This document shows positions 8,118 to 27,444 of a DNA stretch of 64,000 nucleotides, in pieces. The translations under genes were made by a program, and so were the position numbers. The notes beneath the pieces were generated by a model, which was not told where the DNA came from, did no database searches, and worked only from the letters and a program-made list of their open reading frames with translations. Numbering within the stretch: the first letter of the stretch is position 1; each line of letters starts with the position of its first letter. This DNA is from Candidatus Marinacidobacterales bacterium (GTDB lineage: Bacteria; Acidobacteriota; Vicinamibacteria; Marinacidobacterales; DATDRI01). The stretch spans positions 3,552,001 to 3,616,000 of the forward strand of contig OZ245365.1 of NCBI GenBank assembly GCA_965226495.1, given 5' to 3'.

Positions 8118-9506
8118 TCAATCGCCGGCAGAAGCCTCGATGCAGTAGAGGTGTTTCTCGCTGCGGATGAATATCTTGCCTCCGGCAATGGCGGGAGAGG
8201 CCCAGATCGACTCGTCGATGGAGTTCACGGCTAGCACCTCATGAACCGGCCCGCCCCTCACGACGAAGACGTCGCCATCCTCGCTCGCCAGCAGGATGTG
8301 CCCCTGGAACCCGACGGGCGAAGCTTTGAACATGCTGGGTACGGGAACTCTTCCGCCCTCGTAAACGATCTTGCCGCTGACGGCATCGATGCCAGTGAGA
8401 ATCCCTTTGTCCGACACGAGGTAGAGATAATCTCCATAGAGGAGATTGGATGGAACGTAGGCGGTTCCTTTCTCATATTCCCAGACTACTTTGGTAGTTC
8501 CGGTCAGGTCACCTGAACCGCCAAGCTTGATGGCTTTTGTAATCTTCCGAGGGTATCCGGCCGTAACGAAGACCATCCCGTGGCCTGCCACAGGAGTGTG
8601 AATGGCATTGCTCTCGACACCCTTGACACGCCAGAGCTCTTTGCCGCTATCGGGGTCGTAGGAAATGATCGCCTCGTTGCCGTTCGTAACCAGTTCGGTG
8701 CGGCCTTCGTCTTCGATGAGGAGCGGTGTCGAAAAGCTCGCCTGAACCCCACGAGGAACTCGCCACACCTCGTCGCCGGTCCCCTTATCCAGCGCGGTGA
8801 TGAACGAGCGCTCGCCATTGTTCTCGTCGACCTGAAGGATAACCATGTTCCGATAGAGAATCGGAGAAGTTCCGACGCCCATTCCAAAGGTAGCGACTCC
8901 GCCCAAATGCCTCTTCCAAACGAGGTTTCCATTCAAGTCGTAGCAATAGAGTCCCTCTGAGCCGAAATAAACGTACACCAGACGCCCGTCGGTAGCCGGC
9001 GTGGGAGACGCGTAGGAGCTCATCCTATGTCGATCGTCGTAGACGGTTCCTTCATAGGCGACTCGTTCCCACCGGACCTTCCCCGTCTCGGCGTCTAGGC
9101 AGAACACCTTGAAGGTATGACTATGGGTGGCGCCCACGCTGTCGGGATGGAGGAACACTTCGCCGTTCTCGATATGAACGACGGGCTTCGCTCCCGGGAC
9201 CACGGGACCTTCGATAGCGGTCGTCACGAACACGTCGTCCCCCCATACGGCCGGAGAGGAGTGTCCTCGCCCCTCGATGGCTGCCGCCCACCGAACGTTC
9301 GCCCTCTTACTCCACTCGATAGGTAGCCCTGCTTCAGACGAGATGCCCTGACCTCCGGGCCCCCGCCACTGAGGCCAGTTGGTCTCCTCCGCCGGGACGG
9401 CACCCGGCAGAAGAAGCGTCGAAAGAACTAGCATGAATGCCAGCTGGAGGTTTTCTCGAGACGTCATTCGCTCTCTTCTCATCACTTCTGTCCCCGTGGC
9501 CACCAT
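8118..9506 (-). CDS. Exported PQQ-binding-like beta-propeller protein
   Basis: Signal peptide, [34 protein letters not shown]; true start may be a few codons downstream. Confidence 0.87.
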   Translation of the reverse strand: MVATGTEVMRRERMTSRENLQLAFMLVLSTLLLPGAVPAEETNWPQWRGPGGQGISSEAGLPIEWSKRANVRWAAAIEGRGHSSPAVWGDDVFVTTAIEGPVVPGAKPVVHIENGEVFLHPDSVGATHSHTFKVFCLDAETGKVRWERVAYEGTVYDDRHRMSSYASPTPATDGRLVYVYFGSEGLYCYDLNGNLVWKRHLGGVATFGMGVGTSPILYRNMVILQVDENNGERSFITALDKGTGDEVWRVPRGVQASFSTPLLIEDEGRTELVTNGNEAIISYDPDSGKELWRVKGVESNAIHTPVAGHGMVFVTAGYPRKITKAIKLGGSGDLTGTTKVVWEYEKGTAYVPSNLLYGDYLYLVSDKGILTGIDAVSGKIVYEGGRVPVPSMFKASPVGFQGHILLASEDGDVFVVRGGPVHEVLAVNSIDESIWASPAIAGGKIFIRSEKHLYCIEASAGD

Positions 9507-9629
9507 GGGGAGGTTTGCTTGACGCGTCCGCTCGCGGCATTATATCGTCGTCGGCCTATGTTCTTCGAGCTTAGAGACTAACACCGTGGCAAGGCCCTCC
9601 GACCCTCTCCTAAAGGCATCCGAGCAAAG

Positions 9630-11840
9630 ATGATAACCAAGAGATTTTCCGAGATCGTGTTCTTGCTGACGGCGCTTCTGGTTTGCGGCGCTGCGGCATC
9701 TTTGACGACTCCTACTGCATCGAGCGGCGACTGGACCGATTGGCGTGGTCCGGCGCGGGACGGTCGATCCACAGAAAGCGGCCTCCCGACACGGTGGACG
9801 CTCGCCGGAGATAACCTCGCCTGGAAGGTTCCGTACGGAAGCCGCTCGACCCCCATCGTCCTCGGTGACCGACTTTATCTTCAGAATGCCGCGGGCGAGG
9901 GCGACACGATGCAAGAACGCGTGATGTGCTTCAACGCGAACACCGGAGAGCTGCTATGGGAGCACCGTTTCAACGTGTACCAGAGTGACGTCCCTCCGCA
10001 TCGTGTGGGATGGGCCTCGCCGGTGGGCGATCCCAAGACGGGGAACGTGTTTGCCTATGGCGTTGGGGGCACGCTGCTATCCCTCAGCAAAGAGGGCGAG
10101 CCCCTCTGGAGCCGCTCGCTGGGTGAGGACTTCGGTCTGGTAACCACCCACGGTGGGCGCACCGCGTCTCCCGTGATCGAAGGCGACATCTTAATTGTAA
10201 GCGGAGTTAATTCGGGCTGGGGCAATCAAGCACGAGGTGCACAGCGATTCTTTGCCTTCGACAAATCGACTGGAGAAACCGTCTGGGTAAGCTCACCCGG
10301 CGGTCGTCCCTTCGACACGACGTACTCCCCCCCCATCGGCGTCGACGTCAACGGCACGCGTTTGCTCATCGCAGGCGGTGGCGACGGCGCGGTACACGCC
10401 TTGAAGCCACAAACGGGTGAGCCGGTCTGGAAATACGAGTTCAGCAAACGCGGTGTCAATTCGGGGACGGTGCTAAAGGGAACGACGGCCATTGTCAGCC
10501 ACGGTGAGGAGAACCTAGCTAGCAGCGAGATGGGGTTCATCGCCGCGATCGACGCCGCCGCAACCGGACAGATCAGGCAAGACCAAGTGAAATGGCAGGA
10601 GTTCGGGTTCCTTGGTGGCTATTCTTCACCGGTGATCGACGGCGATCGCGTTTACCAGGTCGACAACGCCGCCAACCTCGTCGCCTTCGATATCGAGACC
10701 GGTAACCGGCTTTGGTTCCTCAACCTGGGAACCATCCAGCGAGCATCTCCGGTCCTGGCGGACGGAAAGCTCTACGTCGGCACGGTGAACGGAAAGTTCT
10801 ACATCATTCGACCCGGCGACGAATCCGCCGAGATCCTCAGCCAAGTGCAACTGGGCAGCGAGTCCGAGATAGAAGAGGTGTTCGCCTCGGCTGCCATCTC
10901 GCGCGGCCGGATCTACTTGGCGTCAACTCGCGCCCTCTACTGCATCGGTGAAGGGTCGAAATCCGATGGTGGCGAAGTAGCTCCTGCGCCCCCCTCGCCG
11001 GAAGCGGGCTCTCCGACTCATGTACAGGTAGTTCCAACCGAGTTGGTATTGGCCCCTGGCGACACCGTTCAATTCCAGGCTCGGCTTTTCGACGAGCGCG
11101 GTCTCTTTGTCGGCGTCGAAGAAGCGAGCTGGTCTCTCGATAGCCTCCAGGGCACGGTCGATACCGCAGGTACTTTTAGCGCAGGGACAGGAGAATATGG
11201 ACAGGCGGGACAGGTAAAAGCAACGGTCGGAGACATCGATGGCGTGGCTCGCGTTCGCGTCATTCCCCCTTTACCTTGGAAAGATAATTTCGAAGCCATC
11301 CCGGTGGACAAGGTGCCGCGACATTGGATCAACGCCACCGGCAAATACTTAGTGCGCGAGGAAGACGGAAACAAGGTCCTGGTCAAACGGGCCGACAATC
11401 CGTTTCTGAAACGCGCCCGCGCCTACCTCGGGGCTTCCGATTGGTCCGACTACACCGTCGCCGTCGATGTGAGGTCTTCGGAAAAGCGACGCCAGATGGG
11501 CGATGTGGGAGTCATCGCCCAACGATACGCACTCGTTCTCTTCGGCAACCACCAACGCCTAGAGCTCCACGCCTGGCAACCGGAAACGAGACGAAGCGTG
11601 CGAGCCCCATTCACGTGGAAGCCGGATGCCTGGTACCGCGTGAAGCTCGAAGTTCAGAACCTTTCGGACCGAACGACCCGAGCGCGCGGAAAAGCCTGGC
11701 TCGCCTCGGAACCGGAGCCGGCCGAATGGACGGTAGAGCGCATCGATCCCATCCCCAATCGCGAGGGGAGCCCCGGACTCTACGCCAACGCCATCAACGA
11801 AGTCTTCTTCGACAATCTCGAGGTCAAAGAAAATCCATGA
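9630..11840 (+). CDS. Exported PQQ-like beta-propeller with C-terminal Ig-like and beta-sandwich domains
   Basis: Signal peptide, DWTDWRGP, propeller blades to ~aa 440, Pro linker, then beta-rich tail ending FFDNLEV. Confidence 0.82.
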   Translation: MITKRFSEIVFLLTALLVCGAAASLTTPTASSGDWTDWRGPARDGRSTESGLPTRWTLAGDNLAWKVPYGSRSTPIVLGDRLYLQNAAGEGDTMQERVMCFNANTGELLWEHRFNVYQSDVPPHRVGWASPVGDPKTGNVFAYGVGGTLLSLSKEGEPLWSRSLGEDFGLVTTHGGRTASPVIEGDILIVSGVNSGWGNQARGAQRFFAFDKSTGETVWVSSPGGRPFDTTYSPPIGVDVNGTRLLIAGGGDGAVHALKPQTGEPVWKYEFSKRGVNSGTVLKGTTAIVSHGEENLASSEMGFIAAIDAAATGQIRQDQVKWQEFGFLGGYSSPVIDGDRVYQVDNAANLVAFDIETGNRLWFLNLGTIQRASPVLADGKLYVGTVNGKFYIIRPGDESAEILSQVQLGSESEIEEVFASAAISRGRIYLASTRALYCIGEGSKSDGGEVAPAPPSPEAGSPTHVQVVPTELVLAPGDTVQFQARLFDERGLFVGVEEASWSLDSLQGTVDTAGTFSAGTGEYGQAGQVKATVGDIDGVARVRVIPPLPWKDNFEAIPVDKVPRHWINATGKYLVREEDGNKVLVKRADNPFLKRARAYLGASDWSDYTVAVDVRSSEKRRQMGDVGVIAQRYALVLFGNHQRLELHAWQPETRRSVRAPFTWKPDAWYRVKLEVQNLSDRTTRARGKAWLASEPEPAEWTVERIDPIPNREGSPGLYANAINEVFFDNLEVKENP

Positions 11841-13300
11841 ACCGCAGATTGAATTTGCCCCGACTGCTACTACTAGGAAGCTTGCTCGTCCCTTCGCTGC
11901 TCATCGCTCTCGTCGGAATCGCCTCGACACGTCCGACGTCGGACGCCGCCGGAGACTGGCCGATGTGGGGCGGTACTCCGGACCGCAACATGATCTCCTC
12001 CATGACCGGTCTTCCCGAAACGTGGGATGTGGAAGAGAAGAAGAACGTCCGGTGGGTGGCCGCGCTGGGTTCACAGACCTATGGCAATCCGGTGGTTGCT
12101 GGCGGAAAAATCTTCGTGGGTACTAATAATGAAGCGCTCTATGATCCCAAGAGGACAGGAGACGCGGGGATCTTGCTGGCCTTCCGCGAATCCGACGGTG
12201 AATTCCTTTGGCAAGCGTTCTCCGAAAAGCTCGCTTCCGGTCGCGTCAATGACTGGCCATATCAGGGAATCTGCAGTTCGCCGCTCGTCGAGGGTGACCG
12301 CCTCTACTACGTGACCAACCGCGGGGAGGTTGCGGCCCTTGATACACAGGGTTTTCGAGACGGCGAGAACGACGGTCCGTTCAAAGAGGAGACGCATAAC
12401 AGCGAACAGGACGCCGATATCGTCTGGGTATTCGACATGATGGAGGAAGTTGGGACCTTCCAGCACAATATGGCCAACTCCTCACCGGTGGCCTACGGCA
12501 ATCTGATTTACGTCAGCACCTCGAACGGCCAAGACGAGAGTCACGTCAACATCCCTTCCCCACGCGCACCGGGCATCATCGCGCTCGACAAGAACACCGG
12601 GGAGCTAGTTTGGGAAGACAACTCAGTCGAAGACCGTATCCTTCATGGGCAATGGTCCTCGGCATCGGTGGCCGAGCTCGGGGGTGTGGTTCAGGTGGTG
12701 ATGGGCCAAGGCGACGGCTGGGTCCGAGGTTACGAGGCAATCACGGGCGAGAAGCTCTGGGAGTTCAATTCCAACCCTAAAGACTCCGAGTGGCCACGAA
12801 CCCGAAACAACGTGATCAGTACTCCCGTGCTCTACAACGACCGGGTCTACATCGGCAACGGGCAGGACCCCGAGCATGGCGAAGGTGTCGGCCACTTCTA
12901 CTCGATCGATCCCACTAAGAGAGGCGACATTACCGAGACCGGCCGCGTGTGGCACTACGACAAGATCCGCCGCACTATCTCGACCGCCGCCATCCAGGAC
13001 GGGTTGATCTACATCCCCGATTTCAGCGGCTTTCTCCATGCCCTCGACATCGAGACCGGGGAGCCAGTCTGGGTGCACGACACGTTCGCCGCCGTCTGGG
13101 CCTCCCCGCTCATCGCCGACGGCAAGATGTACCTGGGTGACGAAGATGGCGACATCGTGGTGTTGAAACCAGGGAGAGAAGAGGTCGTTCTTCAGGAGAT
13201 GAACCTCGGCAGCTCGGTCTACTCTACCGCCGTTCCCGCCAACGGTTCGCTCTACATCGCCAGCCGCAACAAGCTATTCGCCCTGGCCAGACAACCTTAG
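11837..13300 (+). CDS. Exported PQQ-binding-like beta-propeller protein
   Basis: ATG 11837 overlaps the upstream stop (ATGA); signal peptide, DWPMWGG, repeated blades. The 11324 start in the ORF track is an overextension. Confidence 0.87.
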   Translation: MNRRLNLPRLLLLGSLLVPSLLIALVGIASTRPTSDAAGDWPMWGGTPDRNMISSMTGLPETWDVEEKKNVRWVAALGSQTYGNPVVAGGKIFVGTNNEALYDPKRTGDAGILLAFRESDGEFLWQAFSEKLASGRVNDWPYQGICSSPLVEGDRLYYVTNRGEVAALDTQGFRDGENDGPFKEETHNSEQDADIVWVFDMMEEVGTFQHNMANSSPVAYGNLIYVSTSNGQDESHVNIPSPRAPGIIALDKNTGELVWEDNSVEDRILHGQWSSASVAELGGVVQVVMGQGDGWVRGYEAITGEKLWEFNSNPKDSEWPRTRNNVISTPVLYNDRVYIGNGQDPEHGEGVGHFYSIDPTKRGDITETGRVWHYDKIRRTISTAAIQDGLIYIPDFSGFLHALDIETGEPVWVHDTFAAVWASPLIADGKMYLGDEDGDIVVLKPGREEVVLQEMNLGSSVYSTAVPANGSLYIASRNKLFALARQP

Positions 13301-13336
13301 TTGGCCTGGTCAGCCTGACGGGCCTGATTGATCTAG

Positions 13337-14464
13337 ATGGAGCCTTTCGACTTCCAGCCCCAAACCCGCGTGGTTTTCGGAAAAGGGGCGCTCACGAGTT
13401 TGGGCGCTCTTGCCCAAGAGCTGGGATTTCGTCGTACCCTCATCGTGTCTGATCCCGGCGTAGTGCGCTCGGGCCATTTCGAATCCACGAACAAAGAGCT
13501 TCGCGACGTTGGGATCGAGACGTTCGGCTTTCACGACTTCGGCGAGGATCCCGATACACACATGGTCGAATCGGGGCGTGACGTAGCCGCAAAGAAAGAG
13601 ATCAACTCTTTGGTCGGGCTCGGGGGCGGAAGCTCGATGGATTGTGCCAAGGGTATCAACTTCCTGTTCACCAACGGCGGCAGCATGAAGGACTACTGGG
13701 GGATTGGGAAAGCCTCGAAGCCCATGCTTCCGTCGATCGGCATCCCCACCACGGCGGGCACTGGCAGTGAGGCGCAATCCTTTGCCCTTATCTCCGATGC
13801 GGAGACTCACGCCAAGATGGCTTGCGGTGATCTAAAAGCCGCGTTCCGCGTCGCGCTTCTCGATCCCGAGCTCACCGTATCGCAGCCGAAGCGGGTGACC
13901 GCCGCCACCGGCTTCGACGCCATCGCGCACGCCGTCGAGACCTATGTCACCCGGAAGCGCAACCAACTCTCCGACACATTCTCGTATCAGGCGTGGCGTC
14001 TACTGGAAGCAAATTATGAACGAGCTCTCTCTCATCCAAACGACATCGAGGCTCGGGCCGCCATGCAACTCGGTGCCTACTACGCGGGAGTCGCGATCGA
14101 AAACTCGATGCTGGGTGCGACGCATGCTTGTGCCAACCCACTAACCGCCCGTTATGGGACTGTGCACGGTGTGGCGCTCGCCATTCTCTTACCGCAGGTG
14201 GTCCGTTGGAACGCCAAGGTCGCCGGTTTCCGATACGCGGAGCTCGTGGGATCGAGCGAGGGTGACGCAGGCGATAAACTGGCAAAGAGACTCGCGCAAC
14301 TGGCGGCGGCCGGCGATTTGTCGGCTCGCCTGAGCTCGATTGGTGTGCCCGAGGGGGACCTGGAGATGCTTGCCGAGGAGGCGGCACTCCAATGGACCGG
14401 CAGTTTCAACCCGCGCGTTTTCGACGCCTCCGGGGCGCTTGAGGTTTACCGTTGGGCGTATTGA
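13337..14464 (+). CDS. Iron-containing (type III) alcohol dehydrogenase
   Basis: [36 protein letters not shown] motifs. Confidence 0.93.
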
Positions 14465-15585
14465 TCTTCCTGCTTCTAAGCATCGGCGCCTCGAGCATGA
14501 CGTCGGGCACGCCGACTAGCCAGGAAAGTTGGAATCAATTCCGGGGAAGTCCGGGGCTAACCGGCATTGCACACTCCAAGCTTCCCGAGACCTTGGAGCT
14601 CCTCTGGAGCTACGAAGGCGAAGATTCCATTGACTCGTCGGCGGCTATCGTGGATGGCGTCGTATATGTCGGCACGTTTTCTGGCGACTTGTTGGCCCTG
14701 TCTTTGGAAGACGGATCTCTTCGATGGAAATACTCGGTCGGAGAGGAGGGAATCGGCGAATCCTCCCCCGCGGTGTCGAACGGTATCGTCTACGTCGGCG
14801 ATTTGGCAGGTGTCGTTCACGCTGTTGACGCCGTCAGTGGCGACGCCGTTTGGACGTTCCAAACACTTGGCGAGATCAAATCGTCGCCGGTCATCATCGA
14901 AGAAAAACTGCTCATCGGTTCCTACGACGAACATGTGTACTCCCTTTCCGCCAGGACCGGAGAGCTGCTGTGGAAGCTCAGAAGCAACGGTTTCATACAC
15001 GGAACGCCGGCGACGAGCAAAGGGCTCACCTACGTCACGGGGTGTGATTCGATGCTTCGGGCCGTCCGCATCACCGATGGCAAGGAGATGCATCAGATCG
15101 ACTCCGGCTCCTATACCGCCGCATCCCCCGCTCTCATTGGGGGCTTCGCCTACTACGGGACCTTCGACAATCAAGTGATTGCGGTGGACCTCGCCAAGCT
15201 GGAGATCGCTTGGCGCTACGAACATCCGGTCCGCCATTTCCCATTTTATTCCTCGGCCGCGGTGGTCGATGGCCGCGTCGTCTTGGGTGGACGGGACAAG
15301 ATGGTGCACTGCCTCGACGCCCAATCCGGGGAAGCGTTGTGGACTTTCCGCACCGGTGCTCGGGTGGATTCTTCACCCGTCGTGACGGGTGGCCGAGTCT
15401 ACATTGGATCGAACGACGGACGTCTCTACGTCTTGGATCTCGAGAGCGGCGAGAAACTCTGGGAGTTCGACGCCGGCGCTCCCTTTTCGGCTTCACCGGC
15501 CGTAGCCGAGGGCCGTTTGGTGATAGGCTCCCAGGACGGGATTATTTACTGCTTTGGCTCGGCCACTGAAAACATAAACGACTAA
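14452..15585 (+). CDS. Exported PQQ/BamB-like eight-bladed beta-propeller protein
   Basis: WNQFRG, regular SSP(A/V)V.DG.VY.GS..G..Y.L..G..W repeats; overlaps ADH stop. Confidence 0.87.
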
Positions 15586-15609
15586 CTCACTGATTGGAGC
15601 TCATCTCAC

Positions 15610-16059
15610 ATGCAATGGTTAACATGGGTCTTGGGGGCAGTTCTAGCTTGGGGGATGTATGGCGTCGCCTTGCACCGAGGGCAGGTACTCCTCGGCAACC
15701 CGATGCGCGCCTTACTTTGTGTCGGGTTCGCGTACTTCCTCATCGGGATTCTGGTGCCGGTTGTGGCTCTTTCCTATGAAGGCGGCCTCGGCGGCTTCAA
15801 CTGGAACGGCACCGCGTTCGCAACGCTCGGAGGAGCATTGGGTGCGGTGGGCGCCGCGTTCATCATCTGGGCTTTCAAGGCGGGGGGACTCCCCACCTAT
15901 GTGATGCCGCTAGTCTTCGCGGGCGCGCCGCTCGTCAACGTCGTCGTCTCGATGGTGGTACATCCACCCAAGACCGCACCAAGTCCCCTGCTCTACCTTG
16001 GCTTCGTCCTCGCCGCAGCGGGCGCGGGGATGGTGCTGTACTTCCGGCCCACCTCTTGA
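15610..16059 (+). CDS. Small five-TM membrane protein (DMT/EamA half-domain-like)
   Basis: 149 aa, five Gly-rich TM segments, WG.YG motif; GGAG RBS. Confidence 0.7.
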   Translation: MQWLTWVLGAVLAWGMYGVALHRGQVLLGNPMRALLCVGFAYFLIGILVPVVALSYEGGLGGFNWNGTAFATLGGALGAVGAAFIIWAFKAGGLPTYVMPLVFAGAPLVNVVVSMVVHPPKTAPSPLLYLGFVLAAAGAGMVLYFRPTS

Positions 16060-16085
16060 GGTAGACGGTCGGCAAGGAAAACTCC

Positions 16086-16454
16086 GTGAAATCGGCGGCG
16101 TTGGGCTTGGCGTTCGCTCTGGCCGCGATCGTTCTTTCCCGTCTTTTCTCGGTGACCCAGAGCCGTCGCTTGTTCGCTATTCTTCTTGGAGCGGCGGCCG
16201 GCGTCTACGTCGGCGCAGCCTTATCTGCGGCGGGGTCGTCACTGGGGTTTCAAGTCGCGGGTTTCGCGGCGTTCGGCAGCATGGCGATGCTGAAGGCACC
16301 GTGGGTGCTGGGTGCGGCCTGGTTGATCCACGGAGGCTGGGATCTGCTCCATTTACTCCAAGTGATCCCGACGACCTTACCGGAGGCTTACCAACTGGCC
16401 TGCCTCACTGCCGATTTAGTTTGGGGAGTATTCCTTCTCCGTTTGCCGAAGTAG
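16086..16454 (+). CDS. Small membrane protein (DUF6010-like)
   Basis: Hydrophobic, with W..HG.WD.LH and Y...C...D pattern. Confidence 0.6.
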   Translation: MKSAALGLAFALAAIVLSRLFSVTQSRRLFAILLGAAAGVYVGAALSAAGSSLGFQVAGFAAFGSMAMLKAPWVLGAAWLIHGGWDLLHLLQVIPTTLPEAYQLACLTADLVWGVFLLRLPK

Positions 16455-16489
16455 ATGGTGCGCTTCGAATGGTCTCGTCGCCGGCTTTG

Positions 16490-17797
16490 TCATCGTCCTG
16501 TTGTTGAAGAAGTAGTAGTACCCTTCTCGGCTCCCGCGGCGCGCTCGCCGATGCAATAGAGATACTCGCCGGTGCGGATGAAGATCTGACCGTCCGAGAT
16601 GGCCGGGGAGCTCAGACAGTAATCGTCGAGCGAGTTTTCCGCCAGAATTTCGAATTCCGGTCCCGCCTTCACCACCGTCGTCACTGCATCTTCGTTGGTG
16701 ACGTAGATCTTCCCATCCGCCAGCACTGCGGAAGAGCTGTAAGTGCCAGATGCGACCCGCTGCTCTCCCCAGATCTCCTCGCCGGTCTGCGCGTCGAGGC
16801 ACCACATCACGCCCTTGTCGTTCACTATGTAGAGATACTTGCCATCGGTAACTGGGGTCGGAACGTCTGGACCATGCTTGGTAGACCAAACACGGTGGGT
16901 CTCGGTGATATCCCCGCGCCCGCCGGCTCTGATGGCCAGCAGAGGGGAAACGCGTGACGGCACATAGATGATGTCGTCGTTGATCACGGGGGATGCCACG
17001 ATGCGATAGTAGGGCTCGTTGTCCGGATTCAGACCATTCGCCCGCCACAGCTCCTCGCCAGTTTCGGGATCGTGCCCGGTGACGCAATCGCCGCCGGTGA
17101 TGACGATCTCGGTCTTGCTGCCGTACCTCAAAAGGCCGGGCGTCGTGTAGGAGTCCGGTGATTCACGTATCGCATCCGTCGCCCGTTCGACTCGCCACAG
17201 CGTTTCTCCCGTCATCTTGTCGATCCGCAACACATAGGATGGATCGTCGGTCTTCATACCGTGTAAGACTTGAACGTATAAAACGTCCCCGTGCAAAAGC
17301 GGTGACGAGGCATAACCCCAGTTAAGCCCGAAGGTTCCGTAGTCTCTTTGGATGTCGCGCGACCAAATTTCCTTGCCGGCGAAGTCGAAGGCCTTCAGAA
17401 TTCCGGTTCCGGTCATGACCCAGATGTGTTTGCCGTCGGTCACCGGCGAGGGGGACGACATGTTCTGCTTTCGCTGCTTCTGATCCCCATCGCTCAAGAA
17501 GCGCTTCCAAAGAACGCTTCCGTCGGAGCGACCGACCGACCACAGATACAAATTCCCGCTGTCCGCTACGTTGAGGAAGATCCGCTCTCCCCAAACGATA
17601 GGCGTCGAACCACTCCAGGCAGGCATCGGGAGCTTCCACGTAACGCCCTCGCTGGTACTCCAACGAACCGGGAGGTTACTCTCTTGGCTCACACCGTCCA
17701 GGGTCGGCCCTCGCCACTGCGGCCAGTTGTCGGCGAGTGCCTGCGTCACCACGATTGAAATGATGAAGGCCAAGACGAGAGTAAAGCTGTTCCGCAC
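16490..17797 (-). CDS. Exported PQQ-binding-like beta-propeller protein
   Basis: GTG 17797 preceded by AAGGAGG; signal peptide, [26 protein letters not shown]. Confidence 0.87.
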
Positions 17798-17927
17798 GAC
17801 TTTCCTCCTTGCTCCCTCGGTGTTCGGCCACCAGGTGCAATTTCCACATAGCAATCGCCGCGCCTGGGACGACTACGGTACAACAATCCGCCGGTCCAAT
17901 TCCACTGATACTGTCGCGGTGCGCCTT

Positions 17928-20900
17928 TTACTCGGCACGAAGGGATTCGAGGAGTGGAGAGCGCACCGAAGCGGCTACCGCCAGAAGAGAGGCGACCGCC
18001 CCGCTCGCCAGCACGGCGAGCAACAGCAGGATTAGAGAAGGGAGCGAAAAGCCTCCACCTCTCGAAACCAACGCCGGAGCGATCGCAACTAGGGCGCACA
18101 GCGTGCCGATAGCAAGTCCCCAGAAGAGCATCACCGCGTTCTCCGAAAGAACCATAAGCGAGAACGCTCGGGAGTCGTATCCGACCGCGCGCAGCAACGC
18201 AAGCTCCCGGCGCCGCTCCAAGACGTTTCGTAACAACACCGCCCCTAGCCCCAACGTGCCGAGTACCAGGCCCAGTCCGCCGAGAGCCTGGAACGTGGAG
18301 AGGTAGGTGTTCTCGACGCGATGAAATCCAGCCAGACGCTCTGCAGTGCCGGCAACGTCGAAGCCGAAATCGGAGAGTCCTTGCTCGAGCGCCTCCGTCA
18401 CACGTTCCGTTTCCTTCGCTGGCACATCGAGCAGAAAGAATCGAAAGCCCTCTTGATCGGGGAAAGCGCGCAGGAAGTTCCGCTCCGACATGAGAAGCTC
18501 GCCCTGAAAGACACTGTCCTTGAGCATGGCGACCAAACGCAGACGAAGGGGCTCTTCCCCCGCACGTTCGAGCAGGAAGTCCTCACCGAGCTTGAGGTGA
18601 AGGACGTAGGTCATCGAGTTGGCATCGCCGATGACCGGTATCGCTCGGTCTGTCTCTTCCCTATCGAGGAGCAACCACGGATTGTCTTTGTCCTCTTGAG
18701 AGTCGGCAAGTGTTCCGGCGAAGGCGAAGCGGGCGCTCTCGACGAACTCTCGGCTAGGGGCGAGTATCCGCGGGTTTTGCGGGCGATAGAGATTCAGACA
18801 GCTCGCGTCTTCTCCTGGACGCACTCGCAGTGCCGAGAACCGTACGTTGGCGAGAATTGGTTCATCATCGATCCCCAGGGATTCTTTTCCTTCGACGGCA
18901 TTGGGATCCCAGGTCAGCGGAATGAGCGACTCCGCCAGGAGTGAAAATCCTCCCGTCCCGGACTTCGGATCCATGGAAGCTTGGCGGTCGTCGCGTCGGA
19001 AAGCATCGACCGCCACGATGATAAAGGTGGCAAAGGCGATCAACGCCACGCACAAGAGGCTGCGCCCGGGACGGTAGGAGACGTTGCGGAACCCGAGACG
19101 GGAGACGGCCCAGTTTCCGGTCCCCGCGATGAGGTGCGCACTTCTATTGGCCAAACGCGTCCAAAGGTAGCCGAGCGACGCCACGAGGAGGAGCGTGCCA
19201 GCTCCAAAGAAACCTGCTACCTGGCTGAGGGAGCCAGACCAGGCTCCGATGAGTAGCGCGGACGCCGCCAACGCGCTACCGATACTGAGCAGCATGGCCT
19301 TGCGTCGCTTGCCAGGCGTGGTGGCCGAGTCGAGCGCCGTCCCGGTCAGCAGACTCCGGGGCGTCATGGGTTTCACGCCGCGGAGTGTCCAGGCGATTCC
19401 CAGAATGGCGGCGAGGATGCCCCCGAGTCCACCAAGTGCCAACCACTTGGTGGACGCGTGTAGGGTCAAGAGCTCGGTGCCTACCGCATCAACCCACCAG
19501 GTCCTGAGTCCCAACATGATGAGCTCCGCATAGGCTACGGCCCCGACTGCCCCAATCAGGCTTCCCAAGGCTGCTAAGAGCAGGCCCTCGCTCAAGAAGA
19601 GTCTGCGGATCCTGGCTGAGGTGAAACCCAAAGCGAACAAAATGCCGATCTCGGGGAGTCGCTGTTCGACACCCAACCGAAAGAAAAGCCCCGCCAGCAA
19701 GAGCGCGGATACCACGAGGAAGAAGCTGAAGTAGACGAAGTACTGGCCAAAATCCGTCGCCCCACGCGAGGCACGAAGGCCTTGGGCGCGAGCCGGGTAG
19801 ATCGACAAACCCGATTCGATGGGGTCGATGGTGTCTCGGAGACCACTCCTGAAGGAATTGAGCGTGGATTCGAGGTCCTCCATCCCAACCGATGGAAAGA
19901 TGCGGATCGAAGTCAGCGCGCCGAAACGACTCCGCCACAACCTTTGCCCAGCAGCAAGCGGGATGAACGCCTTCGGGGTCGTGCCATAGAGGTCCCAGTA
20001 CTCTTCGTCCCGGTCACGAATCCGTTCGAGATCGAGGGGAAAAGGTGGATCCCAATCGGAAAGGGCATCCGACTCGGTGATGCCCGGGTAGGTCGGGGCC
20101 AGATCCGGATCACCGGCCGCCCCTTCGATCGGCACGATACCTACGATTTGGAAATCCGCGTTCCGGATCTCGAGCCGACCCTCGTCCTTCCAGAAGTAAT
20201 ACTCGAGCGTCAGGGGGTCGCCGAGCCGCACCGCTAAGTCACGGGCCACCCAATCGTTGATGACGATCGGTCGTTCGGTTGACCCTTCGGGTAAGGGTAG
20301 TCTCTCCAGACCTGCTTGAAGACTGTCGAACGCTTCCGGGTCGAGGGCGCTCACCAGCGAATAAGGAACCTCTTTGGATCCCGAGAGGATGCTATTGGCC
20401 AGATAGGTATAGATGAAGGACGTGTCCAGGCCAAGATCGCTGGATGCCTTTTGCGCAGCAACCGCCAAAGGATCGCTGATGAGAATTTGCCCACTTTCGA
20501 GGGAAAGGCAGTGCGCTGCTTCGAGGGCGCGAAGCTGGATGCCCACATCTGCGAGCCGGAAAGTCTCCTTGAGAATCCCAGCCAGGACCGCGTCTCTATT
20601 TGTCGAAGCGGACGTGTCGTCGTGGCCCGAGACCAGCAAAGTGTTGACCTTACCTTCCTGGTCGAGGTCTCTCTGGAGCCGCTCCAGAGGGACGAAGAGC
20701 GCGCGCACCGCCCCTTGTTGCGGGTAGAGGGCGAAATCCTTGGTGCCGGAGCTGGGAAGCCCTTCGCTGGCCCTCAGCCGGATGGTTCGTCCCTTTTGCC
20801 CCCTTCGACCGTGGAGGAACTCCCCCGGCACTTCGTATGGTTGCTCGACTCTTAGAAGAATCGTGTCCCCGGGGGTGCTATTCAACTCAAGTGCCAGGCG

Positions 20901-21317
20901 CTTGGTGAGAACAGCATCCCGGCCAGACGGGGGGGCGGGAGAGCTAGGATCGAGGTCGTGGAAAGCCCGGAAGCGCTCGTCGATGCCGTACACCTGGACC
21001 CGGGAGCTCCGCAGGCCGCTCTTCTCGTGTATGACGAACCCTTCGAGAACAATCAGAGGGCTGGCTTCTCGGAATGTAGCGCGAAAGTCTTGATGGGCCT
21101 GGATCTCGTCCGCCAGGTCCTCCGTGAAGAAGTCGAGTGCTGAGACAACGTACTCGACGTTGCCAAGCCGGCCAAGGAATAGGCTCCGGAGGCTCTCCCG
21201 GACGGACTCCCCGACGAGTAACGCACCCGCCAAGACTGCCACCGCCGTCGCCACTCCCCAGACGACGGCGAGGTGAGTCCGCCAGTAATACGTGAGGCTG
21301 CGCTTCAGGATCGTCAT
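17928..21317 (-). CDS. Large ABC transporter permease with two FtsX/MacB-type modules
   Basis: Start MTILKR at 21317; two FtsX signatures (EQRLPEIGILFALGF, ERRRELALLRAVGY) with large periplasmic loops. Confidence 0.88.
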   Translation of the reverse strand: MTILKRSLTYYWRTHLAVVWGVATAVAVLAGALLVGESVRESLRSLFLGRLGNVEYVVSALDFFTEDLADEIQAHQDFRATFREASPLIVLEGFVIHEKSGLRSSRVQVYGIDERFRAFHDLDPSSPAPPSGRDAVLTKRLALELNSTPGDTILLRVEQPYEVPGEFLHGRRGQKGRTIRLRASEGLPSSGTKDFALYPQQGAVRALFVPLERLQRDLDQEGKVNTLLVSGHDDTSASTNRDAVLAGILKETFRLADVGIQLRALEAAHCLSLESGQILISDPLAVAAQKASSDLGLDTSFIYTYLANSILSGSKEVPYSLVSALDPEAFDSLQAGLERLPLPEGSTERPIVINDWVARDLAVRLGDPLTLEYYFWKDEGRLEIRNADFQIVGIVPIEGAAGDPDLAPTYPGITESDALSDWDPPFPLDLERIRDRDEEYWDLYGTTPKAFIPLAAGQRLWRSRFGALTSIRIFPSVGMEDLESTLNSFRSGLRDTIDPIESGLSIYPARAQGLRASRGATDFGQYFVYFSFFLVVSALLLAGLFFRLGVEQRLPEIGILFALGFTSARIRRLFLSEGLLLAALGSLIGAVGAVAYAELIMLGLRTWWVDAVGTELLTLHASTKWLALGGLGGILAAILGIAWTLRGVKPMTPRSLLTGTALDSATTPGKRRKAMLLSIGSALAASALLIGAWSGSLSQVAGFFGAGTLLLVASLGYLWTRLANRSAHLIAGTGNWAVSRLGFRNVSYRPGRSLLCVALIAFATFIIVAVDAFRRDDRQASMDPKSGTGGFSLLAESLIPLTWDPNAVEGKESLGIDDEPILANVRFSALRVRPGEDASCLNLYRPQNPRILAPSREFVESARFAFAGTLADSQEDKDNPWLLLDREETDRAIPVIGDANSMTYVLHLKLGEDFLLERAGEEPLRLRLVAMLKDSVFQGELLMSERNFLRAFPDQEGFRFFLLDVPAKETERVTEALEQGLSDFGFDVAGTAERLAGFHRVENTYLSTFQALGGLGLVLGTLGLGAVLLRNVLERRRELALLRAVGYDSRAFSLMVLSENAVMLFWGLAIGTLCALVAIAPALVSRGGGFSLPSLILLLLAVLASGAVASLLAVAASVRSPLLESLRAE

Positions 21318-21366
21318 TTTCGTACAAGTGCCACCCACTTGGTGACCGGGTCCGATCGACAGCCAA

Positions 21367-22068
21367 TTACACCGGGGTGAGCTTCCCCCCGACAAGTTGC
21401 AGCCGCTGGGGGAACCGTGCAGCCAGCTCGGCGCTATGGGTGACGACGACTAGAATCCTCCTGTCTCGAGCACCAAGCTCTAGCAGCAAAGAAGCCACGT
21501 TCTCCGCTGAACGTGGATCCAGGTTTCCTGTCGGCTCATCGCAAAGCAGCAAGTTCGGGTCTCGGATCAACGCACGCGCAACCGCGATCCGCTGTTTTTC
21601 TCCCCCCGACAGCTCGGATGGGCGATGGTCGATGCGAGCGGTGAGGCCCACCTGCTCGACAAGATGTCTCGCCCGCGCCGGATAGTCCTCCCCAGGCGGA
21701 GCAACCAGAGTGGGAGTCAAAACGTTCTCGAGGACCGAACATTGGGGCAGCAAGTGATGGTCTTGGAATACGAAACCCACCTCTTCGTTTCGAAAGGAGG
21801 CGATCCCCGTGGCGTCGAGATCATAAGGATTGCGGCCTCCGAGTCGAACCGTTCCCGAAGTGGGCGGCTCCAACGCACCGACAATATAAAGGAACGTGCT
21901 CTTCCCGCCTCCGGATGGTCCCATGATCGAAACCGCGTCGCCCAGAGACAGCGAAAGGTCCACCCCCGCAAGCACAGAAAGTTCTCCCCGCGGCGTGGGA
22001 TATTCTTTCCTCAGATCCTTGACTTCGAGAATCGGGGACGTCTGATCTCGGTGAGGGTTGGAGCTCAA
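21367..22068 (-). CDS. ABC transporter ATP-binding protein (LolD/MacB-like)
   Basis: GPSGGGKST, GFVFQ, LSGGEKQR, CDEPTGNLD, VVTH; TTG 22068 overlaps the upstream stop. Confidence 0.92.
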   Translation of the reverse strand: MSSNPHRDQTSPILEVKDLRKEYPTPRGELSVLAGVDLSLSLGDAVSIMGPSGGGKSTFLYIVGALEPPTSGTVRLGGRNPYDLDATGIASFRNEEVGFVFQDHHLLPQCSVLENVLTPTLVAPPGEDYPARARHLVEQVGLTARIDHRPSELSGGEKQRIAVARALIRDPNLLLCDEPTGNLDPRSAENVASLLLELGARDRRILVVVTHSAELAARFPQRLQLVGGKLTPV

Positions 22069-23498
22069 GGTTGCGCTTCCTGAAACGCACGGGCTCGATA
22101 CAAGAAGTCGATGATGTTTCCCTCGTGAGGCTGGAGCCAATTGAGGCGGATGGTGGGAATCGGACCGAGGTTCAAGCGGTCGATCTGTGTAGCGTCCAGC
22201 AACGCGCGCCGAAAACCAGTATCCTCGGTAATGACGCTGCCCACCAACGTCCCTCCCATCGAAGAAAGCATTTTCTCCTGCGGGCATTTCACAACCGACA
22301 CGAACGGAAACATGTACTCCTTGTTTGCCAACGGGTTTTCTACCGACTCGCAATGTATGACGGTGGGGCGGAGATAATCACAGCGCTCACGCTTGACGAG
22401 ACGGCCATCGCCTCCGTCTCGGTATCTAGCCGTTAGGTCCTCCGCTCCCGGAGTCTCCAGGCCGCGGTCGATCTCGTTGGAGATCGCTTGAGCAACTCCC
22501 GGCACAGTGAAGGCCGCGAGTAAGCTTTCCGGGTCGCCTGACGGCCGGGGCGCGACGGGGCCGAGACGTTTGGCGAGGGCCTCCGCGATCTCCTTCGTAT
22601 GTCTGGAGGCCCAAATGCCGGAACAACTGATGCAGCTGCGGCCGCTGTTAGCCAACACGCTGTCCACCATCACATCCAGGTATCTCTCCCACTCGTCCAC
22701 CTTGTCGTCGCCGAGAAAGATCTTGCTGAATCCTGGCCCGTGTACTTGCACCCCCGGGTTCCCCTTGTATCGGTCTACGGTCGACGTGCCACCAAAGATC
22801 AAACTTCGGGAACAGCTGGCCACCACCGCCGCCCCAACGTCTCCGAGGCCTGGATAGATCGAGATGGCTTCCTTTGGGATCCCTGCCTCGAAAAAAGCCT
22901 GTGACATGCGATAGGGAGTCCAGGGTTCTTGAGGCCCCGGCTTGAACACTAGGCCGATTTGAAGAGGGATCACCGGCAGCCACAAAGTGTGGACACCCGG
23001 GGAGTTCGAAGGAAGTACCAAACCGAGAACGGGTGACTCGGCCTGATAACTCAGCAGAACACCGCGTTCAGAGGCTCCGTACCCCTGACTCAGAATCGAG
23101 AGATCTAATCCCCGGGTCAGGGCATCCAAAATCTCTTCCATATGGGTAAGAACGAAGTAATTCTTCTCCATGTTGGACCGACACATGTGCTCAGGGAGGC
23201 CGGTGGTCGCGGATTGGTAGTAGACAAACTGCTCGGGCGTTTGGCTTCCATCCCCCAACGGAAGTTCCGCCGACTGGTAAAGCTCGGCGGCCTTTTTCAC
23301 CATCGAGATCAAATCGCCAATAGGGATCTCCCTCAGTACGTCCCGCGCACGTTGCGCTCGACGCATATCGCGCTGCACCAGACCGGGGTTCGCTTGGCTC
23401 ACCTTCGCGAGCTCTTCACCCGTTTGAAAGTGGACAACCGTGTCCACCTCGAGACTGGTGTACGGCTTGCCCCAACGAATTATCGGGATGTTGATCAT
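22065..23498 (-). CDS. Aldehyde dehydrogenase-fold protein, probably acyl-reductase type (LuxC/EhpG-like)
   Basis: LPSNSP (PxN), FKP, FGG, NSGRSC catalytic Cys, EYMFP; HGPG replaces ELGG. Confidence 0.8.
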   Translation of the reverse strand: MINIPIIRWGKPYTSLEVDTVVHFQTGEELAKVSQANPGLVQRDMRRAQRARDVLREIPIGDLISMVKKAAELYQSAELPLGDGSQTPEQFVYYQSATTGLPEHMCRSNMEKNYFVLTHMEEILDALTRGLDLSILSQGYGASERGVLLSYQAESPVLGLVLPSNSPGVHTLWLPVIPLQIGLVFKPGPQEPWTPYRMSQAFFEAGIPKEAISIYPGLGDVGAAVVASCSRSLIFGGTSTVDRYKGNPGVQVHGPGFSKIFLGDDKVDEWERYLDVMVDSVLANSGRSCISCSGIWASRHTKEIAEALAKRLGPVAPRPSGDPESLLAAFTVPGVAQAISNEIDRGLETPGAEDLTARYRDGGDGRLVKRERCDYLRPTVIHCESVENPLANKEYMFPFVSVVKCPQEKMLSSMGGTLVGSVITEDTGFRRALLDATQIDRLNLGPIPTIRLNWLQPHEGNIIDFLYRARAFQEAQP

Positions 23499-23511
23499 AC
23501 GGCGCTCTACC

Positions 23512-24612
23512 TCAATAGACCCCGACCGTCGTGGTGGCTGCTAGCTTCTGGAAAGGGCGGACTCCGCTTACTCCATCCCAAGGATAGAGGGCATACGGTG
23601 CCTCCCTCTCCCCCTCGTCACGTTCGAGAAACCCGGGGACGAAAAACTCTTTCGTCAAGGTCGTGAGCTTCACGCGGCCCGTCTCTCCGTAATCAACCAC
23701 TCGCTCGGGGTCGTCCGGATCCACCACCTCGATGACGGCTCGCGGCTGCGGTGGATAATATGTGATCTTATAGTTATCGTCCGGTCCAACTGGCTTGGAA
23801 GCAGCCAGTCCCATCAATGTGTTCCCGTACGTTGGTGTGATGTACACTCCGTCGAGAAGCTCCTCCACGGCAAACCGTGTCCACTGCGGGGTGAACTCGG
23901 TGCCTCCCGAAAAGATGCCGGTGATACCCGTTTCTTTGACGCTCGACCCTTGTTCTTCCAGCGCCAACGCGAGTGTTTCCAAAAGCTTCGGTGTCGTAAA
24001 GAGACATCGGATGTCGTGACCGGCACTCAAGGTCGTGAGCGCCTGTTGAATCACATGCGCCTTGTAGGCTTCGAGTTGGTCCGTCCAACCTTTGTCAATC
24101 AGTTTAATGACCCATCGCGGATCGAGATCGACACAGAAACAAATGCCGCCCCGATACTGCGCCAAGTGCTCCACGGCTAGGCGCAGTCGACGTGGACCCG
24201 AGGGGCCGAGCATCAACCAGTTGGCACCCCTGGGGAAGTACTCCTCCGGAAGAGACTCACTGAACAGCTCGTAGTCGATACGAAAATCATCGATGGCGAT
24301 CCGGCTCTTCGGGATCCCAGTAGTGCCCCCGGTCTCGAAAACAAAGATGGGCCGACTGGCAAAAGCCTTGGGCACCCAACGGCGAACCGGCCCCCCCCGG
24401 AGCCATTCGTCCTCGAAAGACGGGAAGCGACGGAGATCCTCGAAGACCTCGATATCGCTCCTCGGATCGAATTCCAATTTTCCGGCGAATTCGAGCCAGA
24501 ACGGAGATCCCGTCTCTGGGTTGAAATGCCACTCTACGATCTCCCTCACGTGGAGGTCGAGCGCCTGCTTTGCCTCTCTTGCTCTCGCGTCAATCGGTAA
24601 CCCCTGACTCAC
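23512..24612 (-). CDS. Short adenylate-forming enzyme (EhpF/LuxE/PaaK-like)
   Basis: ETGGTTGIPK P-loop, YGNT, ERD; only 366 aa; WHF.PETGSPFW N-terminal motif. Confidence 0.75.
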   Translation of the reverse strand: MSQGLPIDARAREAKQALDLHVREIVEWHFNPETGSPFWLEFAGKLEFDPRSDIEVFEDLRRFPSFEDEWLRGGPVRRWVPKAFASRPIFVFETGGTTGIPKSRIAIDDFRIDYELFSESLPEEYFPRGANWLMLGPSGPRRLRLAVEHLAQYRGGICFCVDLDPRWVIKLIDKGWTDQLEAYKAHVIQQALTTLSAGHDIRCLFTTPKLLETLALALEEQGSSVKETGITGIFSGGTEFTPQWTRFAVEELLDGVYITPTYGNTLMGLAASKPVGPDDNYKITYYPPQPRAVIEVVDPDDPERVVDYGETGRVKLTTLTKEFFVPGFLERDEGEREAPYALYPWDGVSGVRPFQKLAATTTVGVY

Positions 24613-24613
24613 T

Positions 24614-25963
24614 TCATTCGACTCCTATTCCGCTCGAAGAGCCTGCTCTTGCAGATCGGCTTGGCGCCGGTCCGATTCCGGAAGAATGGTTTACGTACAC
24701 CTCGAGAGTGCGTCGTGCTTCCTGCTCGACACTGTAATGCTCGTAAACGCCGTTACGCCCGTTGCGGCCCAATTCGTCCGCCAAGCCGGGATCCTCCCAG
24801 ATAGAGACAATCCCCGCGGCCACGTCGGTGCCGTGTTCGGAGTCGACCAAGAGCCCACCCCTTGTTTTCTCGATGATCTCCGGGAAAGCCCCGTGGCGGG
24901 GCTGTACGACCGGAACACCGCAAGCCATTGCCTCCAACAGGTACATACCCTTTGGTTCTTTGTAGCTGCTGGGGACAGACAAGACGTCCAAACCCTGGAG
25001 GAATTTAACCTTGGCCGCGCGATCGAGAGTTCCACGATATCGGAGCTCCCCGTCGAGCCCGGAGTCACTCATTTGCTGCTGGATGCCACGGAGATAGGCT
25101 CGGTGCTCCGACGCCATGTAACCCGCGACCTCGAGTCGCGCGCCGGTCAAGCCTTTGTTTTTGCGGAGGTGACGGTAGGCGTCGACGAGGTTGTGCAATC
25201 CTTTTTCGGGCGCCACTCGCGCAAAATATCCAATGGTGAAAGGCTCCCTGCGAGAAGTTGGCCGAGCCTCATAGCCCTTGAGATTGATACCCAAGGGAAC
25301 TACGTACATTTTCTCCTCGGGAACGTGGAGGTAGTCGGCCATAAATCCCGCGTAGTAGTCGCTCACCGCGACAAATGCGTCTACGTGCTGGATGCTCTGT
25401 CTAATCAACTCGAGCGCTCTCGCCTTGTACGGCTCTTGCAGGCCCTCGAGAAAAAGATCCTCGCCTTGAAGAGTGCAAAACACCGGGCGGTTCACCGCCT
25501 TCTTGATCGGCGCAGCCAGCCCGATGAGGAGCGAGTTAGGAAGATTGACGACGTCGGGCGTGGGTTGGCTCTCGAGCCAATGAAGGAGTTTCTGCAGTTC
25601 CTTACCGTGGACGCCCGCTTCGCCCTCAAGCATGGAGATGGTGAGATCTCCCAGAAGAGCGGGGGCGGTTGATAAGGAAAAGTGCATGGCGGTTTTGATG
25701 GCGAAGGAAGAATCCCAGAGGCGATCGAGCAGCCATGGCGTCTTGCGGAATATCGGCACGTACTGCTGAAGGTAGACGCTCACTCCGCCGAAGAGGACCT
25801 TGTTCTCGCTGACGTTGGGCTCGTCAGTCAGAGTCGGCGTGTAGACCGGCAGCAGAACAACGTCGTGGCCCAGAGTCTTGAGCTCCGCGGCTAGTGCGTT
25901 GTCGCGGAGGCAACTACCGCAGTACATGCCGCCCGCACCGGCGGTTATGAAAAGAATCTTCAT
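24614..25963 (-). CDS. Glycosyltransferase family 4 (GT-B)
   Basis: Start MKILFI at 25963; ARVAPEKG, EPKGMYLLEAMACGVPVV (E-x7-E), GAFPEII. Confidence 0.9.
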   Translation of the reverse strand: MKILFITAGAGGMYCGSCLRDNALAAELKTLGHDVVLLPVYTPTLTDEPNVSENKVLFGGVSVYLQQYVPIFRKTPWLLDRLWDSSFAIKTAMHFSLSTAPALLGDLTISMLEGEAGVHGKELQKLLHWLESQPTPDVVNLPNSLLIGLAAPIKKAVNRPVFCTLQGEDLFLEGLQEPYKARALELIRQSIQHVDAFVAVSDYYAGFMADYLHVPEEKMYVVPLGINLKGYEARPTSRREPFTIGYFARVAPEKGLHNLVDAYRHLRKNKGLTGARLEVAGYMASEHRAYLRGIQQQMSDSGLDGELRYRGTLDRAAKVKFLQGLDVLSVPSSYKEPKGMYLLEAMACGVPVVQPRHGAFPEIIEKTRGGLLVDSEHGTDVAAGIVSIWEDPGLADELGRNGRNGVYEHYSVEQEARRTLEVYVNHSSGIGPAPSRSARAGSSSGIGVE

Positions 25964-27400: not shown

Positions 27401-27444
27401 CACAAAACGCCGGTCGCTATTTCCTCGAACATGGCCGCTAGACA

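Follow-up and report, generated by a model that had tools for sequence, protein, structure and literature searches.

The window analysed here is a stretch of 64,000 nt from a Candidatus Marinacidobacterales bacterium (Acidobacteriota; contig OZ245365.1, positions 3,552,001 to 3,616,000), the genome of which is a single contig of 6.34 Mb, 94.8 % complete. The initial annotation recognised in it two convergent runs of genes and proposed that they form an undescribed pathway for carboxylate reduction, glycosylation and export. Pfam and NCBIfam scans and a check of the open reading frames (ORFs) found all the listed genes, on the same strands and in the same order (Table 1): on the plus strand, two propellers, an iron-type alcohol dehydrogenase (Fe-ADH), a third propeller and two small membrane proteins; on the minus strand, a family 4 glycosyltransferase (GT4), a short adenylating enzyme (adenylase), an aldehyde dehydrogenase (ALDH)-fold protein, an ATP-binding cassette (ABC) ATPase, its permease and a further propeller. 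The junctions bear out the tight packing of both runs, with overlaps and gaps of 1-13 nt: the first two plus-strand propellers share an ATGA at 11837-11840, Fe-ADH overlaps the propeller that starts at 14452 (propeller 14452) by 13 nt, ALDH and ATPase probably overlap in a TTGA, and the adenylase is separated by 1 nt from GT4 and by 13 nt from ALDH. For the window proteins, the closest homologues are those of Acidobacteriota (Vicinamibacteria among them) and Planctomycetota.

Table 1. Genes of the locus and its importers, in window coordinates.
Feature	Position	Strand	Remarks
Sodium:solute symporter	3596..5062	-	Pfam SSF
DUF3311 small symporter subunit	5075..5374	-	Pfam DUF3311, E 1e-8
Exported propeller, divergent from plus run	8118..9506	-	Membership uncertain; only 35-46 % relatives in other clusters
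Exported propeller with extra C-terminal domains	9630..11840	+	Conserved pair with 11837-13300
Exported propeller	11837..13300	+	Invariant GQDPEHGEG stretch
Iron-type alcohol dehydrogenase	13337..14464	+	Pfam Fe-ADH
Core exported 8-bladed propeller	14452..15585	+	Model pLDDT 97
Four-helix membrane protein	15610..16059	+	Recurrent accessory; in 4/10 Acidobacteriota and several planctomycete clusters
DUF6010 protein	16086..16454	+	Family match; bystander-like
Exported propeller behind permease, accessory	16490..17854	-	64-68 % orthologues in loci L053, L061, L077, also in genome G061
Double-FtsX type VII ABC permease, ca. 1130 aa	17928..21317	-	Pfam FtsX x2, MacB_PCD
LolD/YbbA-like ABC ATPase	ca. 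21367..22068 (start approximate)	-	NCBIfam LolD, E 5e-69, below cut-off
ALDH-fold acyl-reductase (EhpG/GriD type)	22065..23498	-	Pfam Aldedh, E 3e-15
EhpF/GriC-type short adenylating enzyme	23512..24612	-	Single copy; PDB 3HGU/3L2K match
GT4 retaining glycosyltransferase	24614..25963	-	Pfam Glycos_transf_1; N-terminal CxxC
TonB-dependent receptor, dedicated	27445..29621	-	48-50 % to cluster receptors; split by one-base assembly error

The adenylase matched EhpF (PDB 3L2K/3HGU) along residues 5-355 with an E value of 1.3e-43, the next structure match having an E value of 0.006, and, at ca. 360 aa, is a short ANL adenylase with homology to EhpF throughout its length. A search at E 0.001 retrieved 1530 representatives, and the clade of the window is highly conserved, with the best 120 of 8000 scored matches at 76-97 % identity and a C-terminal GVY in all of these 120 top homologues. 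Identity inside the clade, which spans two phyla in single copy, is 60-80 %, as compared with ca. 35 % to EhpF-like proteins; the relatives at this level from Streptomyces and plasmids are annotated as AMP-binding protein or 'arylcarboxylate reductase'. In the ALDH-fold protein, Cys289 and Asn165 are kept in 81/81 orthologues, but the alignment does not show the general-base Glu (LELGGK motif) of a hydrolytic ALDH, its position being occupied by an invariant His253 (50/50). These residues agree with the direction from acid to aldehyde that had been proposed. Additionally, the best plasmid matches of the ALDH lie 0.2-2 kb from EhpF-like genes, which, with the structure match, supports the analogy to EhpF/EhpG drawn initially. 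The kinship to LuxE/LuxC suggested at the same time did not hold, and a Lux fatty-acid reductase (LuxCDE) was discarded, there being no LuxE/LuxC family or structure match in Pfam, NCBIfam or PDB. Because of the EhpF match, the ALDH residues, the EhpF-like neighbours on plasmids and the lack of Lux matches, the pair is best read as being of the arylcarboxylate reductase type, and not of the Lux type.

GriC is reported to form the acyl-AMP of 3-amino-4-hydroxybenzoate, which GriD reduces (PMC10179220), and EhpF-O to turn phenazine dicarboxylate into D-alanylgriseoluteic acid (AGA; PMC3175449), with ehpF and ehpG in a phenazine operon (PMC11278526). The window pair resembles EhpF/EhpG (AGA, Pantoea agglomerans) and GriC/GriD (grixazone, Streptomyces griseus) in joining a short ANL adenylase to an ALDH-fold partner. 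Nevertheless, its clade is separate and far more conserved, and is coupled to a GT4, a type VII ABC transporter, a radical SAM enzyme, importers and, in relatives, a cyclase operon. No phz core, griH/griI or aminohydroxybenzoate (AHBA) genes occur among the window genes or the recurrent neighbours in 80 related loci, the search being confined to these.

The Fe-ADH conserves the GGGS and Asp/His/His/His motifs, of established role in such enzymes, and its gene is present in nine of ten Acidobacteriota clusters fetched from relatives. In GT4, the EX7E motif is kept and the N-terminal cysteines are nearly invariant (C15 in 49/49, C18 in 48/49 sequences), with look-alikes in clusters from Acidobacteriota, Planctomycetota and Bacteroidota (Atlas search). 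An exporter of the LolCDE type, as had been anticipated, is supported by the predicted structure of the first periplasmic domain of the permease (model pLDDT 91), for which LolE is the best fold match. The likeness to LolCDE/YbbAP type VII ABC transporters thus resides in the LolD-like ATPase and the modelled LolE-like fold, but the window encodes one fused permease whose periplasmic domain is far larger (TM-score to the query ca. 0.3) and no separate LolC/LolE of ca. 400 aa (31.9 bits against a cut-off of 362). No LolA was recognised for this exporter system.

All five propellers of the locus have one N-terminal hydrophobic stretch each. Propeller 14452 is a bare ring of 349 residues whose model is closest to designed propellers and to BamB, its closest natural fold, and the pair 9630/11837 has orthologues in six of the ten fetched Acidobacteriota clusters and also in planctomycete clusters. 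The four-helix protein downstream of propeller 14452 has no Pfam or NCBIfam match and may be a small transporter. The DUF6010 gene, initially counted in the cluster, is present, but looks like a bystander, with no match in the related loci screened.

The initial boundaries were too narrow, because the TonB receptor and the sodium:solute symporter (SSS) importer (3596-5374) also belong to the system. Receptor orthologues are found in 21/31 adenylase-positive genomes and symporter orthologues in 8/10 fetched Acidobacteriota clusters as well as in planctomycete clusters, with small ORFs similar to the DUF3311 subunit preceding the symporter in relatives. The split receptor gene is not a pseudogene: contigs of three runs from three studies contain, at full depth, one extra base after position 28832, and one of them spans 19715-29895 and is otherwise identical to the window. 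A TRAP transporter lies just left of the window and was seen in four clusters. The importers are parted from the core by transposase-like ORFs at 5655-6965 (judged from sequence) and 26477-27400 (Pfam Y1_Tnp), and between these two lies a lytic transglycosylase (6954-7943). One RNA run yielded a few short contigs over parts of the receptor, GT4 and one propeller gene, which is no proof of transcription.

We examined the conservation of the gene set in 80 GTDB loci covering 10 kb around the adenylase (48 full and 32 shorter than 20 kb) and in samples of 121 genomes each of Acidobacteriota and Planctomycetota; for Fe-ADH, ALDH and the two large propellers, the counts are at locus level only. Within 10 kb of the adenylase, ALDH was found in 71 of the 80 loci, the permease in 36, the ABC ATPase in 33, Fe-ADH in 19, GT4 in 17, propeller 14452 in 14 and a HemN-like radical SAM gene in 9; among the 48 full loci, 46 contain ALDH and 35 the permease. 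The adenylase clade occurs in 31/121 Acidobacteriota from 17 families, plus one divergent copy. Permease, GT4 and propeller 14452 are each present, at orthologue level, in 31/31 of these genomes and in 1, 1 and 2, respectively, of the 90 others, the exceptions being G086 (all three) and G094 (propeller). The radical SAM gene shows the same pattern (28/31 against 0/90), as does a halogenase-like flavoenzyme (26/31 at E < 1e-90; 0/90 at orthologue level, with three weaker matches, one of them in G023). Among Planctomycetota, the core adenylase clade occurs in 25 genomes and a divergent clade in 12; the radical SAM gene is found in exactly the 25 core-clade genomes, and GT4 in these and eight more. 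Related genomes are not independent and Fisher values overstate such associations. In both phyla there are single clusters that unite ten or more of the genes in one direction, in differing order. These results indicate that the genes belong together and not by chance, and corroborate for two phyla the co-conservation of Fe-ADH, GT4, ABC transporter and propellers on which the initial proposal depended.

Among loci L031-L080, a DUF4399 lipoprotein gene is inserted between adenylase and ALDH in 15, and a pterin-4a-carbinolamine dehydratase gene lies upstream of the pair in 20. In P0208 and P0221, the EhpF-like domain follows a class III aminotransferase or a zinc alcohol dehydrogenase in a fusion. 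A divergent EhpF-like clade (30-38 %) without ALDH is found in one acidobacterium and in several planctomycetes (L108-L115, e.g. L108:5818-16188), with U32 peptidase-like, class III aminotransferase, MMPL, NAD-dependent reductase, SCP2 and cytochrome-like genes as neighbours; this is a second, different system.

The ten fetched Acidobacteriota clusters, often a single run, comprise two large propellers, adenylase, ALDH, Fe-ADH, a further propeller, radical SAM, TonB receptor, flavoenzyme, small subunit and SSS symporter, GT4, a 4HBT thioesterase, ABC ATPase and permease. The radical SAM gene of the host genome lies 1.8 Mb from the window, although it is clustered in relatives; its product has the CxxxCxxC motif and HemN C-terminal domain of class C and scores below every named-family cut-off. 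Halogenases of the PltA/CmlS type are the top structure matches of the flavoenzyme. Planctomycete clusters add a PaaK-like ligase, which, like the thioesterase, clusters with the flavoenzyme, and a chorismate-lyase-like protein. The initial pathway is supported in its reductase and exporter but is not self-contained, having missed the importers and the radical SAM gene, as well as the halogenase-like, thioesterase, lyase-like and cyclase genes of relatives. These last four kinds of genes suggest that the substrate is aromatic and probably prenylated, and the aromatic substrates reported for EhpF-O and GriC/GriD are a further hint of an aromatic compound.

A chorismate-lyase-like gene beside a flavin halogenase is also described in a planctomycete, in the baa locus of Planctomycetales 10988 (3,5-dibromo-p-anisic acid; bioRxiv 10.1101/723874). 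That pair is probably different from the present system: for BaaB, a similarity of 44 % to Bmp5 is given, which sets it apart from the PltA/CmlS-type flavoenzyme, and the available text mentions neither reductase nor exporter, its assignment being untested genetically. Identity of the two systems is thus unsupported by that text, and the available text of bioRxiv 10.1101/2025.07.29.667474 makes no mention of ABC, FtsX or TonB.

The cyclase of relatives contains both SQHop domains and the DxDD motif and neighbours a polyprenyl synthase. In these features and in its taxa, it resembles the squalene-hopene cyclase-like ('SHC-like') clade of class II cyclases from the Planctomycetes-Verrucomicrobia-Chlamydiae (PVC) and Fibrobacteres-Chlorobi-Bacteroidetes (FCB) groups, Spirochaetota and Acidobacteriota (PMC7306690, PMC12324236), which the available text ties only to a polyprenyl synthase and not to a reductase, GT4 or exporter. 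Such enzymes are reported to keep catalytic residues, to neighbour a polyprenyl synthase and probably to form polycyclic terpenes that are neither hopanoids nor sterols (PMC7306690), and their function is described as undemonstrated (PMC12324236). In Planctomycetota, the cyclase is present in 27/33 GT4-positive genomes and in only 2/88 others, both of which carry the permease. Thirteen of 27 cyclase loci share the fetched stretch (up to 20 kb) with genes of the window module, in several gene orders and in both phyla; for instance, adenylase-ALDH lie tail to tail with the cyclase in G048, and G201 has the order cyclase-propeller-ABC-permease. Directly behind cyclase and polyprenyl synthase, G122 and G218 have lyase-like and halogenase-like genes. 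The lyase-like profile also matches the cyclase-positive G106, G048 and G159, and misses the host genome (G000), five receptor-bearing genomes and G131.

Nine fetched genomes, eight planctomycetes and G086, have GT4 without an adenylase match. In six of them (G086, G131, G133, G139, G164, G184) the GT4/propeller/ABC block lies beside NuoE/F-like, Fe-S and ferredoxin genes, and several of the six also have a DUF116-polyprenyl synthase, a small prenyltransferase toroid and a two-domain cyclase with DxDD; the NuoE/F-like block may replace the reductive module in anaerobes. In L128, L130 and L132-L135 the GT4/propeller/ABC block is joined by NuoE/F-like, Fe-S flavoprotein, membrane 4Fe-4S, Tat-type ferredoxin and NHL protein genes. 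The cyclase operon of L166-L179, L148 and L150 contains cysteine desulfurase-like, GcvH-like, CobW-like GTPase, ferredoxin and radical SAM genes (labels partly judged from sequence), which hint at sulfur insertion.

The relation between cyclase and receptor was tested in 31 system-bearing Acidobacteriota, with G090 left out. Of the 26 genomes that lack the cyclase, 24 have a receptor: 19 the one of the window, and the remaining 5 an orthologue of a second receptor (55-87 %; in-cluster in G061, G084 and G033). In contrast, just one (G102) of the five cyclase-positive genomes has the first receptor, and the three tested lack the second. The host genome has no orthologues of cyclase, polyprenyl synthase or toroid in a genome search and is of the importer type. 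In Acidobacteriota, cyclase and receptor thus almost exclude each other, a pattern like that of pairs of producers and scavengers, and it is most simply read as the uptake, by importers, of an acid that producers make and that the importers then finish.

Our preferred explanation, advanced tentatively, is that the system serves the import, reduction, methylation, glycosylation and export of a cyclised prenyl-aromatic lipid or cofactor. The compound would be amphipathic and aromatic, most likely a cyclised polyprenyl-hydroxybenzoate of meroterpenoid type that serves as envelope lipid or lipid-anchored cofactor. The direct basis of this explanation is the gene identities, conserved residues, co-occurrence, physical linkage and complementarity of receptor and cyclase. 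In producer genomes, the chorismate-lyase-like protein, polyprenyl synthase and 'SHC-like' cyclase would make the acid, which in the present host would enter through the TonB receptor and the symporter. By homology, the adenylase very probably makes the acyl-AMP, from which the ALDH-fold partner would take the acyl group on Cys289 and release the aldehyde with NAD(P)H, and Fe-ADH probably reduces this to the alcohol. The HemN-like radical SAM enzyme, encoded elsewhere, might add a C1 unit, and in most relatives the halogenase-like flavoenzyme might decorate the ring. GT4 likely transfers a sugar, presumably to this product, which the LolCDE-like transporter would lift from the inner membrane and the propellers would receive or use. 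The order acid-aldehyde-alcohol-glycoside-export is likewise proposed.

A precedent exists in the merosterol pathway of Scytonema, in which the class II cyclase MstE is reported to cyclise a prenyl-dihydroxybenzoate, the resulting acid then undergoing further processing (PMC9401909). However, MstE is monodomain, whereas the linked cyclase has two domains, and MstE is not among the cyclase matches; the small alpha/alpha toroid protein was tried as its orthologue and rejected (E 0.07). Of the features of a merosterol-type pathway, relatives have the linked cyclase and a weak lyase match, and the host genome has none.

Several observations weigh against the proposed explanation. In 12 of the 27 cyclase loci there is no window-module gene in the fetched stretch (of the other two, one is linked indirectly and one contig is too short), and the cyclase-positive G131 lacks adenylase, radical SAM and lyase-like genes, so that terpene and aromatic modules can be separate. 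The clusters contain no recognisable UbiA-type prenyltransferase, which leaves the joining of ring and tail unexplained. The chorismate-lyase-like protein has no Pfam match and one weak match (E 9e-5) to PDB 2NWI, a 'hypothetical protein' that we take to have the chorismate-lyase fold. Matches of the flavoenzyme extend to QhpG, LodB and geranylgeranyl-reductase models, and a genome search found no such gene in the host. Exceptions are G102, with cyclase and receptor together, and G070 and G118, without either; in addition, 6/33 GT4-positive planctomycetes lack the cyclase and this receptor. The receptor is absent from 37/37 planctomycetes, possibly as a lineage trait, TonB receptors being few in this phylum anyway. 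For the first receptor and Acidobacteriota alone, the Fisher p value is 0.04, overstated because kin are not independent.

The unlinked cyclase loci and the missing UbiA would be accounted for if the same chemistry acted on a small terpene-free aromatic, such as a halogenated or methylated hydroxybenzyl glycoside, and the cyclase lipid were separate, sharing its delivery by GT4, ABC transporter and propellers. The eight planctomycetes and G086, which keep GT4 without adenylase or radical SAM, fit this as well, and the reported substrates of EhpF and GriC are small aromatics (PMC3175449, PMC10179220). We regard it as unlikely, since it leaves unexplained the mutual exclusion of receptor and cyclase, the need for a LolE-like membrane extractor and the lyase-like and halogenase-like genes behind the cyclase in G122 and G218.

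A role as periplasmic redox cofactor or electron carrier, with the pyrroloquinoline quinone (PQQ)-like propellers as apo-enzymes or docking proteins, is compatible with the preferred explanation in chemistry and differs only in role. It is suggested by the 22 propeller loci of the host genome, by surface-type motifs that are invariant in propellers 11837 and 14452, by the adenylase-less block beside NuoE/F-like, Fe-S flavoprotein, membrane ferredoxin and another propeller, and by the partition between uptake and synthesis, a pattern typical of cofactors. Yet propeller 14452 is a bare BamB-like ring with no PQQ dehydrogenase among its listed fold matches, and the propellers score at most 95 bits against a PQQ-enzyme cut-off of 480, far from a PQQ-dependent dehydrogenase, which makes this role less likely still.

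The TonB receptor, the symporter and the TRAP transporter, together with Fe-ADH and ALDH folds that are common in catabolism, could instead suggest a catabolic or detoxifying locus, in which an environmental aromatic would be imported and either oxidised or reduced as a carbon source, or conjugated and expelled. This is improbable, because the ALDH has no hydrolytic Glu; ATP-driven reduction, radical SAM, GT4 and exporter belong to anabolism; the genes are kept in single copy at 60-80 % identity across two phyla; and receptor-less genomes carry synthesis genes instead. Finally, loose co-inheritance of genes that mark the same lineages without forming a single pathway can practically be dismissed, since, even though presence follows families and the genes are scattered in several planctomycetes, co-directional clusters of differing order recur in both phyla and the unlinked radical SAM gene of the host is clustered in relatives.

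These results show that the locus is a real, well-conserved and undescribed pathway whose parts are of known kinds. No characterised pathway matched it, and no description of this gene set was found in the literature searched, from which subscription journals were largely excluded. Around a quarter of the sampled genomes, from two phyla abundant in soil and ocean, keep the system in single copy, and it links two enzyme families, the EhpF/GriC-type pair and the 'SHC-like' cyclases. For the latter, with their undemonstrated function and likely polycyclic terpenes other than hopanoids or sterols, the matter has consequences for biomarkers (PMC7306690, PMC12324236), and the link provides a gene set for testing together with a likely aromatic head group, an exporter and a prediction of cross-feeding. 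In addition, part of the large 'BamB/PQQ-like' propeller expansion and the fused type VII ABC transporter would receive a first function. A bolder and rather doubtful extension is that Acidobacteriota and Planctomycetota might share an undescribed glycosylated, ring-modified meroterpenoid, the sought product of the 'SHC-like' cyclases; some species would make it, whereas many more would take up its acid precursor by dedicated TonB receptors, as with a vitamin, and complete it, and the LolCDE-like machine would deliver it to the propellers.

Elsewhere in the window, glutaminyl- and glutamyl-tRNA-synthetase-like genes converge with overlapping ends at 29584-32948 (judged from sequence). An inositol-monophosphatase-like gene is followed by a nucleotidyltransferase/CDP-alcohol phosphotransferase fusion at 42521-44831, presumably arranged as in di-myo-inositol-phosphate synthesis. 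A secretin-like protein with a TPR N-terminus is encoded at 48821-50542, beside a LolA-like gene (48121-48798), both judged from sequence.

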